12,647 nucleotides of DNA from the IMG/VR virus record IMGVR_UViG_3300028888_003076. One strand, written 5' to 3'. This document shows positions 912 through 6,279 of this stretch, piece by piece; within the stretch, counting starts at the first letter, position 1, and each line of letters begins with the position of its first letter. The stretch comes from a virus. Under the pieces are notes generated by a model. It saw only the letters and a list, made by a program, of their open reading frames with translations, had not been told where the DNA came from and made no database searches. A program made the translations under genes and the position numbers.

Positions 912-3359
912 TTATTCATTACCGCCAATACTTTTTACGATACCATCAATAGGTAAACCGCGAAGAAGTTTATTAGTAACATCAGCAACGCTTTCGTCAT
1001 CCCCAGCAATAGAGTATGGAGCAACAGCATTAACAAGATTATTAGCAATTTCAGCATTAGCAGTTGCAGTAAGAGCTTCAATCAAACCAGGTCCAATAGA
1101 ATTCATAATTTTAGCAACAGTTTCAGCATAAGCGTTTTGCTTAGCCTTTTCAATTTCTAATAATTTATTCTTATAAAGAATTTCCTGATCTCTATCAGCC
1201 TGCTTACGTTTTCTTTCAGCATCAGCAATTGCATCACTCAGAACTTGAAGATCCTTTTCAGCCTGTTTAGAAGCAGTAGCTTCAGCTTCTTTAAGACGAT
1301 TAATTTCAGATTGAATATTAAGTTTATTAGTAGATTCAATACGATCAAGTTCAAGTTTATGAATCAGCTTTTGATTTCTGACTTCATACTCTTTCTTTTC
1401 TGCTTCCGCTAACTTGGTAGCGACTTCAACACGCTTATCAGCAGTAGAAAGTTCAAGAGCACGTTCAACCATATCATGCTGGTGCTCATTAAGCATAGAT
1501 TTAATTTCGCTTTCTACATCAATAGCAAGAACTTCGCAATCAGAAACATACATACCATTTTCAGGGAAGAAACGTCCAATATGCTTTGCCTTATCTGTAT
1601 CTTTTACCTCAGATTTATCACGGGCAATAGCTACATCTCTTACAATATCAATATAACGCTGATAAAATTCTTCAATAGTATAATTTTTAGCTGCTCTCTT
1701 TAATAAAGAACGCTCTCGATCGCACATAAATTTAACATAGTTATCAATATTAAACCAGCGATCCTGATACTTCTGATCAAAATCAACGCAATAAGATACT
1801 TTAATCCCGCAACGAACAAAATCTTTAGTCTCAACAGTTACAAAATCAGAAACTTTATTAGTTTCATGGCGTAAGAATACTGTATGAAGCAATTTATCTG
1901 TAGTTTTTGGCTTACCAGTAGAGAGCTGCAACTCTTCAAGAGTCTGATCATAATCCAGCATTACAGTCTGAGGGCCGCAAATCACTTTGCGATTACCATT
2001 CTTAGAGATAACATTTACAGCATATCCAGTCCAAACATCAACACTTACAATACCTTCATACTTAGTGTCAAGAGTAATAGTTCTAGGTTTGGTATAGCTA
2101 GTACCACGAGAAATATTAGCTTTAGCTTCTAAGTTTGCAAGAGTATCTCCCAGACTATTAGAAGTTGTGTAAGCAGTAAATTCATCAATAGAAATAGTTT
2201 TAAGTGATTTTTCAAGATTTTTTTCATTCAATTGCTCATTATAAGCAATTGCTTCAGCATTACCAGGATACATTAACTCGCACTGATGACGAGAGAGCTT
2301 ACGTTTTACGACAACTTCAAAACGAGGGTCAGGCAAATACATAAGAGGTCCGAGAACAGTTTTAATTTCGCCAGTTAATCTATTCATGATATATCGGCCT
2401 TCGCCCTTAGGAATAGCAATTGCGTGATGCATCATCTTACCATCGTAAGTAATAATAGCATGTTCAGGACGAGGATAATAAATCATCTGGTCTTTGCCAG
2501 TCAAAAATAACTCTTCACCTACTGGATGAATATTTTTCTTTTCATCAGTATATTCTGCAATTACTTTAATATAAATACCAGAAATAGGAGAAAGTTCAAC
2601 TGCACGGAATACATAACCACCCTTGGGGCTGGTTACAAAATTTTCAGTAGGTTTGGGAAATACAACAGCAGGACCATGAAGATAACGCTTATTGCCATCT
2701 TCATCCTTCAAAATACAGTATTCAAGACGCTCAAGAGTAACAGCATCACGGATATACCCATTACTGTCATCATTATTAATAGGAATTACTTCAATACCAG
2801 TAGGAGGAATGTAGAAAGAAACTTCAGTACCTTTAATTACAAGGATCTGACCATTAACATAAGTCTGCTGAGGATTCTCAATCAAATTACCTTCTGCATC
2901 TCGAATTTCGCCAATAGAATTACTAGCAGCATTAGCTTCATAAACACGAGCAAGAAGATATTGATTAGTTCGTAAAGCGTGACCACGAATAACCTTTGCC
3001 ATCTGACCAGGATAAAGAGCAAAACTTGCAGGACCAGTAATATTAATCTTTTTACCAATTTCCATCCCATCCGGTAAAACATTTGATGTACCAGCCGCCG
3101 GATGCTTATTGTCCTTAGCCGGATTCTTTAAAATAATATACCAGTTCTCTGGTGCAATAGTTAAAAGATGGACTGCATGTTCATAAGAACAAGGTTCAAA
3201 TCTCTTGGTTGTAGAATTAAATCTTACAAGACTATCACTTTGAGATAAAGACATTTTAGTCGGCCCAACTAAACAAGAAATAAAACCTTTAGTTGAGTCA
3301 AGAACATAGGCATATTCATTAGTAGAAAGAACTAAATCTTTCTAAATATTATCATTCAT
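912..3359 (-). CDS. Major vault protein (MVP)-like protein of about 815 aa. The true start is ATG 3359-3357, upstream of the track ORF 912..3254, and requires read-through of an in-frame TAG at 3344-3342.
   Basis: Recalled human MVP aligns along the whole length. The N-terminus YAYVLDSTKGFISCLVGPTKMSLSQSDSLVRF matches [43 protein letters not shown] matches PFPLYPGE. GEGRYIMNRLTGEIKTVLGPLMYL matches [51 protein letters not shown] matches [43 protein letters not shown] matches ITIETADHARLQLQLAY. RFFPENGMYVSDCEV matches AVFPQNGLVVSSVDV. A long cap-helix coiled coil follows, then SIGPGLIEAL matching AIGPSTIRDL. The RBS AAAGGAG (3374-3370) sits 10 nt before ATG 3359. The next in-frame ATG at 3254 has no RBS. 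The stop is TAA at 914-912. Confidence 0.8.
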
Positions 3360-3394
3360 TTATTTTTTTCTCCTTTATTATTTTTTCTATATAT

Positions 3395-3423
3395 ATTATA
3401 TCATTTTTTTATAAAAAAATCAA
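3395..3423 (-). promoter_or_regulatory. Class-I promoter TTGATT-N17-TGaTATAAT driving the MVP gene
   Basis: The -35 is at 3423-3418 and the -10 at 3400-3395, with an extended TG. The conserved leader atatatagaaaaaataataaaggag runs into the MVP RBS. Confidence 0.65.
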
Positions 3424-3432
3424 AGAAGAGAT

Positions 3433-3780
3433 TTATTTATCTTCTTTGATTTTCGCATATTCTTGTATAAAACGTAATCCTTCTATTGCGTATCTTTGTC
3501 TTTGATCCTCATACCGATAATTTTCTTCTGTTAACTAGGGATCTTCTTCAATGATTTGACGATGACCTTCAATAAGGTCTTGTTCAAATTGTTGTTCTTC
3601 TTCTGTGGGTTCATATTTAGGATCTTTTGCTACTTTTACTAAAAATGCAATAAATTTTTCTGTTTCTTCATCATCAATTAAATATTCACCTTTAATACAA
3701 AAGTTATACCATTTTTTAACAGGGATTGCAATTAACTAAAATAGAATTGAAAAAAAATCTTTTAAAAATGAATACATCAT
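3433..3780 (-). CDS. Hypothetical 115-aa protein with an N-terminal hydrophobic segment and an acidic C-terminus. It contains two in-frame TAG codons.
   Basis: ATG ATG at 3780-3775 is preceded by the RBS AAAGGAAC 8 nt upstream. The frame runs to TAA at 3435-3433 only if the TAGs at 3738-3736 and 3537-3535 are read as sense. With TAG as a stop, no ORF of 60 aa or more exists here, which explains the gap in the track. Confidence 0.55.
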
Positions 3781-3836
3781 AATGGGTGTTCCTTTCTTTA
3801 TAGTCAAATAAAAATCGTATTTATTCTTTTATAAAT

Positions 3837-3865
3837 TTGACTATCTCTAAAAAATTTTGTAAAAT
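3837..3865 (+). promoter_or_regulatory. Plus-strand promoter TTGACT-N17-TAAAAT for the FNT-like gene
   Basis: The -35 is ttgact at 3837-3842. A 17-nt spacer follows, then taaaat at 3860-3865. The RBS gaagga and ATG 3890 lie downstream. Confidence 0.5.
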
Positions 3866-3889
3866 AATTAGTGAAGGATGTGATATTAA

Positions 3890-5322: not shown

Positions 5323-5408
5323 TATGAAAATCTGTATATTTTTGTTAAAATAAAATATATTAAAATTTTACAACTTTTTAGGCAAGTTTAAATGCCTATC
5401 TTTTTTGG

Positions 5409-5433
5409 TATGTCAAAGACCTTTAAAGACATA
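5409..5433. promoter_or_regulatory. Composite palindrome tatgtcAAAGACCTTTAAAGgacata, a candidate operator for the adjacent RHH regulator
   Basis: Inverted arms tatgtc/gacata flank an internal cTTTAAAg palindrome. The element lies 13 nt upstream of the ATG at 5446. Confidence 0.35.
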
Positions 5434-5445
5434 CCTAAATCCGCA

Positions 5446-5643
5446 ATGGAAAGGATTGAAATATTTTTGGAAGATAAGAAAGTGCATTAGATATCGGTGA
5501 AATTAACTACGGAAGAGTATGGCTGGTTAGTGCGATATTGTGATAAACACGATGTATCTATGGCTAGTATAATTAGAAAAGGTTTCCGTATGTATAGAAC
5601 CGCAGTAAGTAAAAATAGTAAAACTACTAACAAATAGTAGTAA
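5446..5643 (+). CDS. Ribbon-helix-helix (CopG/Arc/MetJ-like) DNA-binding protein of about 65 aa (alternative starts 5392 or 5410). It has one internal TAG and ends ...NK-TAG-TAG-TAA.
   Basis: The motif ISVKLTTEEYGWLVRYCDKHDVSMASIIRKGF has the RHH beta-strand plus helix A signature. The beta-strand gets its N-terminal context only by reading through the TAG at 5488-5490. The ORF ends with TAG TAG TAA at 5635-5643. Confidence 0.5.
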
Positions 5644-5665
5644 AGGAAGAGAGAACAAATAACAA

Positions 5666-5839
5666 ATGAAACAAAAGATTATATTTTCAAAACAAATTAT
5701 GTTAGGTCTATTGGAAAAAGGATTTCGTCCAATAGAGTCATTCCCGAATCCTACTAATCCAAAGTATTTGGCTTGGGCTTTTGAAGAAAGTGATGCTCTT
5801 GAAGAAGCATTTGCGGAAGTCCTTGCGCAAAGGGGGTAA
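5666..5839 (+). CDS. Hypothetical 57-aa protein (MKQKIIFSKQIMLGLLEKGFRPIESFPNPTNPKYLAWAFEESDALEEAFAEVLAQRG)
   Basis: The RBS aaggaagagag precedes ATG 5666. The stop is TAA at 5837-5839. The gene sits between the RHH gene and the initiator gene. Confidence 0.5.
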   Translation: MKQKIIFSKQIMLGLLEKGFRPIESFPNPTNPKYLAWAFEESDALEEAFAEVLAQRG

Positions 5840-5844
5840 TAATC

Positions 5845-6279
5845 TTGGCAACGACTTATAGAAATTCAAAGATTATTTATCCTGGATATGAGGCTTTAAA
5901 AGATACGACGCATCATTATTATAGATTAAGTGCGGCAGCATTTGAGAAAGTTGTGAAAGAGTGCAAGCCTTTTGAAGTTTATTTATGGATTTATTGTCAT
6001 AGGATTAAAGATAGTTGGGCTTTTAGTCCATAGGCTTTAATTGAGGAATTTGGGGGTAGTGATAAAAGTTGGCGTGAAGCTAGATAGGGATTAGAGAATA
6101 AGGGATATCTCGTTTAGATTTCTGGTAATGGATATAGATTTGATGAAGTGCCGCAGACTTATGAAAAGGATAAGTTGAAAGTCATATTGAGTTATGAGGT
6201 TGATAAAGATGCTGAATGGATAGAAAAAGATGTCGTGCGGCTTAGCGATGGAGAGTTAAGACGAGTTTAGACATTTTAA
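5845..6279 (+). CDS. Winged-helix replication initiator / replisome-organizer-like protein of about 144 aa, with a TTG start and four in-frame TAG codons
   Basis: The strong RBS AAGGGGG (5830-5836) lies 8 nt before TTG 5845. The motif LWIYCHRIKDSWAFSP[TAG]ALIEEFGGSDKSWREAR[TAG]GLENKGYLV[TAG]ISGNGYRF is a wHTH of the RepA / phage replisome-organizer N-terminal type. The frame continues through the TAGs at 6031, 6085, 6115 and 6268 to TAA at 6277-6279. The iteron array begins 50 bp downstream. Track ORF 5845..6033 is its N-terminal fragment. Confidence 0.55.

Follow-up and report, generated by a model that had tools for sequence, protein, structure and literature searches.

Does TAG end translation in this viral DNA, or is it read as an amino acid? 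The window (the whole stretch analysed, 12,647 nucleotides of IMG/VR record IMGVR_UViG_3300028888_003076) carries six open reading frames (ORFs) that, as the original prediction had it, stay open only if TAG is a sense codon, probably for Gln as in code 15. We conclude that the window very probably belongs to a jumbo phage genome of roughly 240 kb from a rumen or gut setting, represented by contig IMGVR_UViG_3300028805_000039 or by a strain 1–3% diverged from it, which uses code 15 with UAG read as Gln. Coding density, two-way exchange of TAG with CAA or CAG, selection, recurrence in other assemblies and a tRNA with a CUA anticodon support this assignment.

Six frames interrupted only by TAG

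All 16 in-frame TAGs proposed for the six ORFs are present where they had been placed, and every one of these ORFs ends with TAA (Table 1). Their frames are interrupted by TAG only, never by TAA, TGA or a frameshift. The other 15 genes tallied are TAG-free, as had been claimed for the rest of the window, and the stops of all 21 tallied genes comprise 16 TAA, five TGA and no TAG. Gene termination here is by TAA and TGA only.

Table 1. Features of the window discussed in the text, with the in-frame TAG codons of each ORF.
Feature	Positions	Strand	In-frame TAGs	Basis
Major-vault-protein (MVP) homologue, 815 aa	912–3359	−	codon 6, CTA at 3342–3344 (− strand)	Pfam MVP_shoulder 9e-19, Vault_3 1e-8
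p124, function unassigned; 115 aa (ATG 3780) or 124 aa (TTG 3807)	3433–3807	−	3736–3738; 3535–3537 (codon 91)	orthologues L037, L039
Short formate/nitrite-transporter-family (FNT) channel, 233 aa	3890–4591	+	4022, 4043, 4268, 4520 (codons 45, 52, 127, 211)	Pfam PF01226, E = 3e-19
Cys-rich ORF, putative C4 zinc-finger motifs, likely start ATG 4841	4446–4883	−	4785–4787 (codon 33); 4623–4625	orthologues L037, L039
p81, 81-aa gene within the island, TGA stop	4795–5040	−	none	ORF
Putative ribbon-helix-helix (RHH) regulator	5392–5643	+	5488 (codon 33); TAG-TAG 5635–5640, immediately 5′ of TAA	codon-position bias after TAG; weak DUF6290
p57, 57-aa gene between RHH gene and initiator	5666–5839	+	none	nucleotide conservation
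Winged-HTH (wHTH) protein, 144 aa, putative origin-binding initiator	5845–6279	+	6031, 6085, 6115, 6268 (codons 63, 81, 91, 142)	homologues, AF2 model
11 palindromic iterons GGTAAWTTTTACC, ~33-bp phasing	6331–6742			site count versus chance
AT-rich stretch after the iterons, candidate DNA-unwinding element	6749–6869			composition
tRNA-Glu(UUC), sole tRNA of the window	12114–12190	−		tRNA search

Between positions 3360 and 6300, ORFs of at least 80 amino acids cover 0.15 of the sequence under code 11 and 0.84 when TAG is sense, a value that none of 500 dinucleotide shuffles matches (mean 0.11, maximum 0.44). Code 4, unlike code 15, brings no gain in coding density in the window. Reading TAA as sense in this AT-rich region also gives 0.81, and density alone therefore cannot tell the codes apart. 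Across 41.6 kb of contig IMGVR_UViG_3300028805_000039, coding density rises from 0.56 to 0.70 with TAG as sense, and in related phages it starts at values down to 0.49 and reaches 0.90 with code 15, with no such rise under code 4. The span originally proposed for the recoding holds for the six genes but is too narrow, as further TAG-containing genes lie to the left of the window's left end.

Conserved domains and selection across the TAG codons

The MVP gene opens at ATG 3359 behind a strong AAAGGAG Shine–Dalgarno site, the good ribosome-binding site that had been predicted. Under code 11 its start would be 3254, and the interval from the TAG to that position offers no ATG, GTG or TTG. Of 33 related phage loci, 32 have the Gln of a QKDLVL or QRDLVL motif opposite codon 6, and L024 has Asn.

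In the FNT channel, the Pfam match covers residues 8–193 and hence three TAGs. These three (codons 45, 52 and 127) are TAG in orthologue L037 and CAA or CAG Gln in L039, which is 62% identical. The exchange also runs in reverse: Gln codons 114, 131, 177 and 210 of the window are TAG in L037 and L039. At codon 211, L037 has Leu and L039 has Val. For p124 (83% identical to L037, 57% to L039), L037 likewise shares the first TAG and L039 has Gln there, and codon 91 is opposite Glu and Gly, respectively; mismatches after the first TAG number 12, 4 and 23 at codon positions 1, 2 and 3.

The Cys-rich ORF (86% and 55% identical to L037 and L039) overlaps the FNT tail convergently at 4446–4591. Its first CxxC reads C-TAG-F-C, as had been noticed, and is covered by a weak, sub-threshold match to a ClpX-type C4 zinc finger (zf-C4_ClpX, E = 0.018). 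This TAG is kept in L037 and replaced by Pro in L039; the second is Gln in L037. Mismatches after the first TAG are again distributed by codon position, at 11/5/25.

An AlphaFold (AF2) model of the putative initiator (pLDDT 89) predicts a winged helix-turn-helix with TAG sites in helix 2, helix 3 and the first wing strand, which fits the earlier view that this domain spans three TAGs. Four of the five Gln codons of this gene are TAG. Among its remote homologues (n = 91; Pfam HTH_36 match in 20 of 36), a standard-code bacterial protein (L152) has CAA Gln opposite codons 81 and 91, two others (L149 and L150) likewise carry TAG at GYLV#, and one has TAG at the near-invariant Gln of PNQ. Codon 142 lies in a variable alignment column. 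Mismatches of 4/1/13 and 6/1/20 by codon position accompany an in-frame 6-nt indel.

The RHH gene is a partial exception. Its TAGs are in frame and it ends with TAA as predicted, but its TAG at codon 33 may fall outside the coding sequence and belong to a 5′ leader or operator. Mismatches in the core 3′ of this TAG are 3/0/8 and 3/1/8 by codon position. The stretch 5′ of it lacks third-position bias (1/2/2 and 3/3/4) and contains an inverted repeat at 5403–5439, and ATG 5392 is not kept in L039; the core may thus start after the TAG. The candidate starts are ATG 5392, ATG 5410 and GTG 5497, and the sole Pfam match is to DUF6290 (E = 0.12). The neighbouring p57 is 95–97% identical to L037 and L039 in nucleotides, with nearly all mismatches at third positions.

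Relative to L037 and L039, third-position substitution bias persists 3′ of the TAGs and indels are in frame. At the level of sequence comparison, purifying selection acts 3′ of the TAGs; the alignments show the TAG-containing ORFs to be real genes under such selection, and the predicted domains to require translation through the TAGs.

The short code-11 ORFs of 3360–6300 (82 amino acids at most) and the lack of the island genes from the 10-kb flanks of 33 other MVP-anchored loci would suit decaying pseudogenes with TAGs as inactivating nonsense mutations. Such decay is highly improbable, given that TAG alone breaks the frames, that the ORFs are kept in L037 and L039 with the bias and in-frame indels just described, that conserved Gln sites swap TAG for CAR in both directions, and that essential-looking genes of the clade carry up to dozens of TAGs. 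A single transition turns CAG into TAG, and window and IMG/VR contig differ at 1–3% of sites, as sequencing or assembly error (C to T in CAG, for example) might produce. Yet all 16 TAGs are present in that contig, and assemblies from different samples repeat many of them: ENA ERZ1029111 has TAG at 11 of the 16 sites, ENA ERZ14209545 at 7 of the 16, and Logan ERR3211447 at those of the FNT gene. Finding the same TAGs in separately assembled data means that they did not arise as sequencing errors, an explanation to which we give next to no weight. We also consider it very unlikely that UAG remains a stop, with the pieces between TAGs being small genes or non-coding and the real genes limited to the RHH core, p57 and p81. 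The RHH gene could plausibly begin after its codon-33 TAG, and its two terminal TAGs hardly alter the protein. Elsewhere, termination would cut the FNT transmembrane helices, the wHTH domain and the zinc-finger knuckle into non-functional pieces and would cost MVP 35 conserved N-terminal residues and its sole Shine–Dalgarno site; the internal TAGs lack start codons or ribosome-binding sites after them, and the genome holds a tRNA(CUA).

Glutamine and the suppressor tRNA

In all-against-all alignments of about 35 loci, positions opposite a TAG hold TAG (43%), Gln (13.8%), Lys (8.5%) and Glu (6.6%). Among sense residues Gln leads, with a 4.5-fold enrichment over its 3.1% background; Lys and Trp (2.3% versus 0.9%) also exceed background, and Glu is close to it. 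For the TAGs of the window, Gln occupies 29 of 46 non-TAG cells, and TAG and CAA or CAG swap both ways at conserved Gln sites in MVP, FNT, the initiator and p124.

As stated originally, the window has no tRNA with a CUA anticodon. One lies at ~201.77 kb of contig IMGVR_UViG_3300028805_000039 (L117, 1830–1904), about 40 kb from the window, scoring 43 bits against the Rfam tRNA model and forming a cloverleaf; with the contig 1–3% divergent, it is strictly the tRNA of a near-identical strain. The genome, like those of many clade members, encodes a tRNA(CUA): one or two copies lie near the MVP gene in 9 of 34 MVP-anchored loci (eight contigs). Of 46 unique Sup(CUA) tRNAs, 23 resemble tRNA-Gln more closely than any other normal tRNA. 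For the tRNA of the contig itself, Asn scores 20 and Gln 18, so that its identity by similarity is ambiguous; it has the mismatched 1:72 pair and G73 seen in the Gln-derived suppressors of relatives.

Readthrough with another residue (Lys, Glu, Leu, Tyr, Trp or pyrrolysine) or a mixture is improbable, if somewhat less so than the alternatives above. It draws on the Asn-like score of this tRNA, on the elevated Lys and Trp, on the three TAGs (FNT codon 211, p124 codon 91 and Cys-rich codon 33) opposite Leu, Val, Glu, Gly or Pro, and on the ARAGORN label ‘Pyl’, which is due simply to the CUA anticodon. Against it, Gln is far ahead in enrichment, the strongly conserved sites are always Gln (MVP QKDLVL, FNT CIQIAV, initiator PNQ and GYLVQ), half of the clade suppressors are nearest tRNA-Gln and share the weak 1:72 pair and G73, and no pyrrolysine machinery was seen in the sequence examined. 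Proteomics has also proved TAG to be Gln in crAss-like phages, which use code 15 (Peters et al. 2022, PMC9523058). If UAG is Gln, the host system would presumably load Gln onto the phage tRNA(CUA), which would presumably outcompete release factor 1 at UAG.

An origin-proximal TAG island

TAG use is mosaic. TAG accounts for 15 of 38 Gln codons in five genes at the origin-like region (p124, the FNT channel, the Cys-rich ORF, the RHH gene and the initiator beside the 11 iterons) and for none of 37 in 15 neighbouring genes (TAG:CAR 15:23 versus 0:37, Fisher p = 1e-5). The standard code suffices for the small leftward genes at 7319–12617 and at 86–816 and for about 10 kb beyond, and so a standard-code host could translate them right at DNA entry. 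Under the temporal-gating model proposed for code-15 gut phages (Borges et al., bioRxiv 10.1101/2021.08.26.457843), full-length TAG-containing proteins would appear only after expression of the suppressor tRNA, and TAG-free and TAG-rich genes may correspond to early and late genes.

Code-15 use is well documented in phages of the gut and rumen (crAss-like, Lak and Jade/Sapphire/Agate-type large phages), and the recoding here is a clear new example of it. Among the accounts of such phages is reportedly that of Ivanova 2014. A jumbo-phage survey also covers this recoding (PMC13037316). Like those phages, this one has in-frame TAGs in conserved genes, density rescued by code 15 only, TAG opposite Gln, a phage-encoded tRNA(CUA), recoding in only part of the gene set with standard-code-compatible blocks beside recoded modules, a large genome and an animal-gut metagenome origin. 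Unlike in them, the heaviest recoding of the window is in the origin-proximal module (initiator, RHH, FNT and Cys-rich genes) and not in structural or lysis genes, with the single TAG of the vault homologue in addition.

In classical amber suppression, tRNA-Gln(CUA), as in E. coli supE or the phage T4 psu tRNAs, acts partially and rescues mutants. A Gln-type CUA tRNA competing with release factor 1 at UAG is common to both systems, but in this phage UAG is conserved and routinely used as a sense codon.

Iteron-regulated plasmid and phage origins use winged-helix Rep initiators, for example of the RepA, π or RctB type. The window resembles them in that a small wHTH gene adjoins phased iterons and an AT-rich tract, and differs in that its iterons are palindromic and the initiator role is putative. 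No characterised Rep family gave a significant sequence or fold match to this protein (best PDB E-value 0.08; Pfam HTH_36 only), and among its Foldseek hits are the winged helices of RctB domain 1, TubR and primosome DnaB. The iterons lie directly downstream of the wHTH gene, where 11 sites are found against 0.04 expected by chance, and the window has none elsewhere.

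Amber codons within the genes of the window

The original prediction placed 16 in-frame TAG codons in six genes of the window, each ending in TAA, and all 16 positions and all six terminators were confirmed in the sequence (see table). Within the interval 3360-6300, where the standard code (code 11) yields no ORF longer than 82 aa, the proposed comparison of translation table 15 (TAG read as Gln) with table 11 raises ORF coverage from 0.15 to 0.84; reading TGA as sense gives 0.30. Dinucleotide shuffles of the same interval, translated with TAG as sense, reach a mean coverage of 0.11 and a maximum of 0.44, such that none of 500 attains the observed value.

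Features of the window that bear on TAG recoding. Mismatches are counted at codon positions 1/2/3 downstream of the first TAG, between the window and the related loci L037 (ENA ERZ1029111) and L039 (ENA ERZ14209545).
Feature	Coordinates	Strand	Description	Mismatches, L037	Mismatches, L039
MVP	912-3359	-	815 aa, 1 TAG		
p124 (115/124-aa gene)	3433-3807	-	2 TAGs	12/4/23	
FNT-like gene	3890-4591	+	233 aa, 4 TAGs		
Cys-rich ORF	4446-4883	-	2 TAGs	11/5/25	
p81	4795-5040	-	81 aa, TAG-free		
RHH-like gene	5392-5643	+	1 internal TAG, then TAG-TAG before TAA	3/0/8 (core)	3/1/8 (core)
Inverted repeat	5403-5439				
p57	5666-5839	+	57 aa, TAG-free		
Putative wHTH initiator gene	5845-6279	+	144 aa, 4 TAGs	2/1/9	4/0/11
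Palindromic iterons	6331-6742		11 copies, ~33-bp phasing		
AT-rich tract	6749-6869				
Gene-poor stretch	7711-8820		~1.1 kb		
Tandem repeat	8618-8665		24-bp unit		

A similar gain is seen beyond the window. Code 15, without a similar effect from code 4 (TGA as sense), lifts coding density in most related loci, by up to 0.41; for example, L019 rises from 0.49 to 0.90 and L013 from 0.56 to 0.90. The density of L001 is 0.51 under code 11, 0.71 with TAG as sense and 0.59 with TGA as sense, and for 41.6 kb of the source contig IMGVR_UViG_3300028805_000039 code 15 gives 0.70 where code 11 gives 0.56.

Reading TAA as sense also covers 0.81 of the interval 3360-6300. We rejected this reading as an artefact of AT-richness, given that TAA terminates every conserved gene. 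Since it matches the gain so closely, however, density by itself is not decisive, and the case for TAG as a sense codon rests on homology. Stop-codon usage was given little weight as a test that is partly circular and weak: 21 window genes end in TAA (16) or TGA (5) and none in TAG, which in AT-rich DNA is a weak test alone. Candidate ORFs discarded as spurious were a code-15 ORF at 4984-5391 (+), which is antisense to p81, of low complexity and only partly conserved, and antisense ORFs at 8484-9069 (+).

Glutamine as the probable meaning of TAG

The MVP gene, predicted to encode a homologue of the eukaryotic major vault protein with shoulder and vault repeat domains (Pfam MVP_shoulder, 9e-19, 68 bits, cut-off 25; Vault_3, 35.2 bits, cut-off 28.8), carries its TAG at codon 6. 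A strong AAAGGAG site precedes the ATG at 3359 but not the code-11 ATG at 3254, and no ATG, GTG or TTG occurs between the TAG and 3254. Codon 6 sits in the conserved motif M-x-D-x-x-Q-K/R-D-L-V-L, where the aligned residue is Gln in 32 of 33 related loci and Asn in the other (L024). The conserved N-terminus thus spans the TAG, bearing out the claim of homology on both of its sides.

The FNT-like product is predicted to belong to the formate/nitrite transporter family PF01226 and to be shorter than typical members, with a Pfam match over residues 8-193 (E = 3e-19, 69.8 bits, cut-off 34.6) that covers three TAGs. For this lineage, the gene calling that underlies public protein collections already used code 15. 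The Gln residues found at TAG sites in database homologues of the FNT-like protein were dropped as independent evidence because those homologues had been translated in this way, and codons were instead read directly in DNA. Codons 45, 52 and 127 are also TAG in the L037 orthologue (92% identity) and are CAA or CAG Gln codons in that of L039 (62% identity). The reverse exchange occurs at positions 114, 131, 177 and 210, where L037 and L039 carry TAG and the window has Gln. At codon 211, in a tail of poor conservation, the orthologues have Leu or Val. Likewise, codon 91 of p124 aligns with Glu and Gly, and codon 33 of the Cys-rich ORF with TAG and Pro; these two are compatible with variable positions and uninformative on the inserted amino acid.

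The non-conserved C-terminal tail of this unusually short phage-encoded FNT-family channel overlaps the 3′ end of the convergent Cys-rich ORF by 146 nt, and the FNT orthologues P0003 and P0004, each of 198 aa, are without the tail.

For the initiator, a homologue in a bacterial context that uses the standard code (L152, flanked by YitT and peptidase M20) has CAA Gln at the positions that align with codons 81 and 91 of the window gene. Remote homologues from other phages, only 27-28% identical (L149 and the independent assemblies L150 and L151), carry TAG at the same wing position, 'GYLV#', and L150 has a further TAG at the near-invariant Gln of a PNQ motif.

A global test, in which code-15 ORFs from roughly 35 non-redundant loci were compared all against all, places opposite TAG another TAG in 43% of cases, Gln in 13.8% (background 3.1%), Lys in 8.5% and Glu in 6.6%. 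Opposite the TAGs of the window itself, 29 of 46 non-TAG cells are Gln. The predicted reassignment of amber to Gln is therefore upheld by a preferential pairing of TAG with Gln in homologues, verified at the level of DNA codons, and the code-15 interpretation of the window is supported.

Selection acts on the sequences that follow the TAGs. Downstream of the first TAG, mismatches with L037 and L039 concentrate at third codon positions (see table), and the initiator has one in-frame 6-nt indel. Both features argue for purifying selection at the protein level across the TAGs. As had been proposed, genes and domains continue through these codons, with three spanned by the FNT Pfam match, one by the MVP N-terminus and three by the initiator wHTH as modelled by AlphaFold. 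Comparison among homologues shows UAG to be a sense codon in real, selected genes, with Gln as its predicted meaning.

A suppressor tRNA on the source contig

The 780-aa ORF that code 11 gives at 912-3254 (-) matched 34 IMG/VR contigs, and its protein is 100% identical in IMGVR_UViG_3300028805_000039 (239,565 bp). The window corresponds to roughly 149.3-162.0 kb of this contig on the reverse strand, and the analysis covered about 46 kb of the contig. Nucleotide identities of 99.3% and 97.3% for the two halves, with indels within the repeat region (the iterons and AT-rich tract, 6331-6869), indicate that the two are independent assemblies of one phage or of very close strains. A megablast search of the whole window against GenBank phages returned no match, and at the protein level only three huge uncultured phages there (LR756500/501/503) match, at about 40% identity.

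The window encodes tRNA-Glu(UUC) as its sole tRNA and no CUA suppressor, in agreement with the original prediction, which had recommended a search of the wider genome. That search located a tRNA(CUA) at about 201.77 kb of the source contig, using a degenerate pattern built from the suppressor tRNAs of relatives (locus L117, contig 199,938-204,620). In the 10 kb of this contig upstream of the window, the only tRNA found is tRNA-Lys. For the tRNA at about 201.77 kb, ARAGORN assigns the anticodon CUA, and the score with the Rfam tRNA model is 43 bits (gathering threshold 29). Its cloverleaf has G73, an encoded CCA and a mismatch at the 1:72 pair. At a distance of 1.7 kb there is a tRNA-Gln(CUG). 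By nearest-neighbour similarity (Asn 20 versus Gln 18) the identity of the suppressor is ambiguous. One or two tRNA(CUA) genes occur a few kilobases upstream of MVP in 9 of 34 MVP-anchored loci (eight contigs), and among 46 unique Sup(CUA) tRNAs from the loci collected, 23 have a tRNA-Gln as their nearest non-suppressor tRNA.

Other tRNA calls accompany these genes. L117 47-3944 (contig ~200-204 kb) contains Gln-CUG, Sup-CUA, Lys-UUU and a tRNA called with an irregular anticodon of four bases. At ~175-179 kb of the source contig (L153 14804-18752), nine tRNAs form a 4-kb cluster, one of them oddly called as Cys(ACA). A tRNA(CUA) also occurs in an unrelated phage contig of IMG/VR (L053 5979-6053), together with a tRNA of anticodon UUA, called as an ochre suppressor.

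Mosaic recoding and an origin-like cassette

TAG use is mosaic. Across the five genes of the TAG-rich island (p124, FNT-like, Cys-rich, RHH and initiator), 15 of 38 Gln codons are TAG, compared with 0 of 37 in 15 other window genes (Fisher p = 1e-5), which fits the claim that the remaining genes are TAG-free and stop with TAA or TGA. The share is 4/5 in the initiator, 3/3 in the RHH gene and 1/24 in MVP. About 10 kb past the right end of the window are almost TAG-free; past the left end TAG-containing genes resume, encoding 308 aa (2 TAGs), 546 aa (3) and 267 aa (6).

A matching pattern of recoding has been described for phages (Borges et al., bioRxiv 10.1101/2021.08.26.457843), Gln insertion was proved by proteomics in crAss-like phages (Peters et al., PMC9523058), and for jumbo phages of rumen and gut a 2026 survey reports code 15 together with CUA tRNAs (PMC13037316). 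Accessory genes of a code change, such as RF2 and GlnRS, are frequent companions of code 15 in phages without being obligatory. By extension of the published model, a phage tRNA(CUA) charged with Gln would compete with host RF1, so that genes compatible with the standard code could be expressed at once and TAG genes would need tRNA(CUA).

The most heavily recoded genes belong to a cassette ordered as the RHH gene, p57, the wHTH gene, and then iterons and an AT-rich tract. The 11 iterons, palindromes of sequence GGTAAWTTTTACC, lie directly 3′ of the wHTH gene (chance expectation 0.04), and by its sequence features the region 6331-6869 looks like a replication origin. An exhaustive HMMER search with the initiator recovered 91 remote homologues, whose alignment extends along the entire protein; a k-mer-seeded search gave one close cluster only. 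Pfam HTH_36 matches 20 of 36 family members examined, and no Pfam Rep match was found in the family, whose other hits are a weak DnaD_N in one member and a weak DUF1376 in another. AlphaFold, given a 36-sequence alignment, predicts a classic winged helix (pLDDT 89.4; 38 from the single sequence) whose helices span residues 42-53, 64-71 and 75-88, followed by a wing hairpin at 91-101. The model would place the TAGs in helices 2 and 3, in the first strand of the wing and in the C-terminal strand. Foldseek against the PDB returned weak, generic winged-helix matches (best E-value 0.076).

Recoding of the RHH gene stood in part. Its TAGs are in frame, but the one at codon 33, which is TAG in both orthologues (L037 and L039), perhaps lies in a leader or operator. 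Third-position bias is absent from the 32 codons that precede it (1/2/2 and 3/3/4), and L039 does not share the ATG at 5392. The annotated start is further placed in doubt by an inverted repeat, TTTTGGTATGTC-N13-GACATACCTAAA, just upstream of the RHH core and highly conserved in L037 and L039, which is possibly an operator for autoregulation. The pre-TAG stretch may therefore be a leader or operator, with the core beginning at GTG 5497, a codon without an obvious Shine-Dalgarno site. For the terminal TAG-TAG-TAA, the choice of code makes a difference of just two residues to the protein. The beta-alpha-alpha pattern was recognized by eye only, and the single match in a profile search, DUF6290 (E = 0.12), is below cut-off.

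The module 5392-6279 retains 91-97% nucleotide identity to L039, compared with 71-83% for flanking genes, reflecting either unusually strong constraint or a recent exchange of the origin module. Across the initiator and RHH genes, 7 of 8 Gln codons are TAG, and these TAGs are kept in orthologues whose neighbouring genes are down to 55-62% identity. We regard it as an improbable speculation that amber recoding gates the replication origin, reaching beyond lysis and structural genes. If it did, firing of the iteron origin would require the suppressor tRNA, the single TAG of MVP would make production of this vault-like protein tRNA-dependent as well, and the code switch would be a replication-mode or commitment switch.

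All testable defining features of a code-15 phage were found here. The phenomenon is well established, and the window adds a case without changing what is known: a clean, internally validated example of a jumbo phage, from a metagenome of animal-gut type, with mosaic recoding of TAG to Gln and an identified suppressor tRNA. Somewhat unusual is which genes are most recoded, namely those of the origin-like cassette, whereas the literature emphasizes the lysis cassette; this makes the idea of timed expression testable on a different gene class. Translation table 15 is required to annotate this genome: the standard code breaks up at least six genes of the window and many elsewhere, among them the vault-protein homologue, the transporter and the putative origin-binding protein.

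Several minor observations concern the surrounding genes. In IMG/VR, 34 large-phage contigs share the MVP homologue at 49-80% identity. L037 and L039 lack it in a locus that is otherwise syntenic, so that it behaves like an accessory gene of the lineage. The gene-poor stretch, which contains the 24-bp tandem repeat, matched no Rfam family, and the equivalent stretch of L037 is also unannotated. Finally, three paralogues of a 127-aa gene lie within 10 kb (L040 653-1075, 6738-7130 and 10001-10375, the last being window 12234-12617); a repeated intergenic element is close to each, and two are directly followed by a tRNA (Lys-UUU and Glu-UUC).
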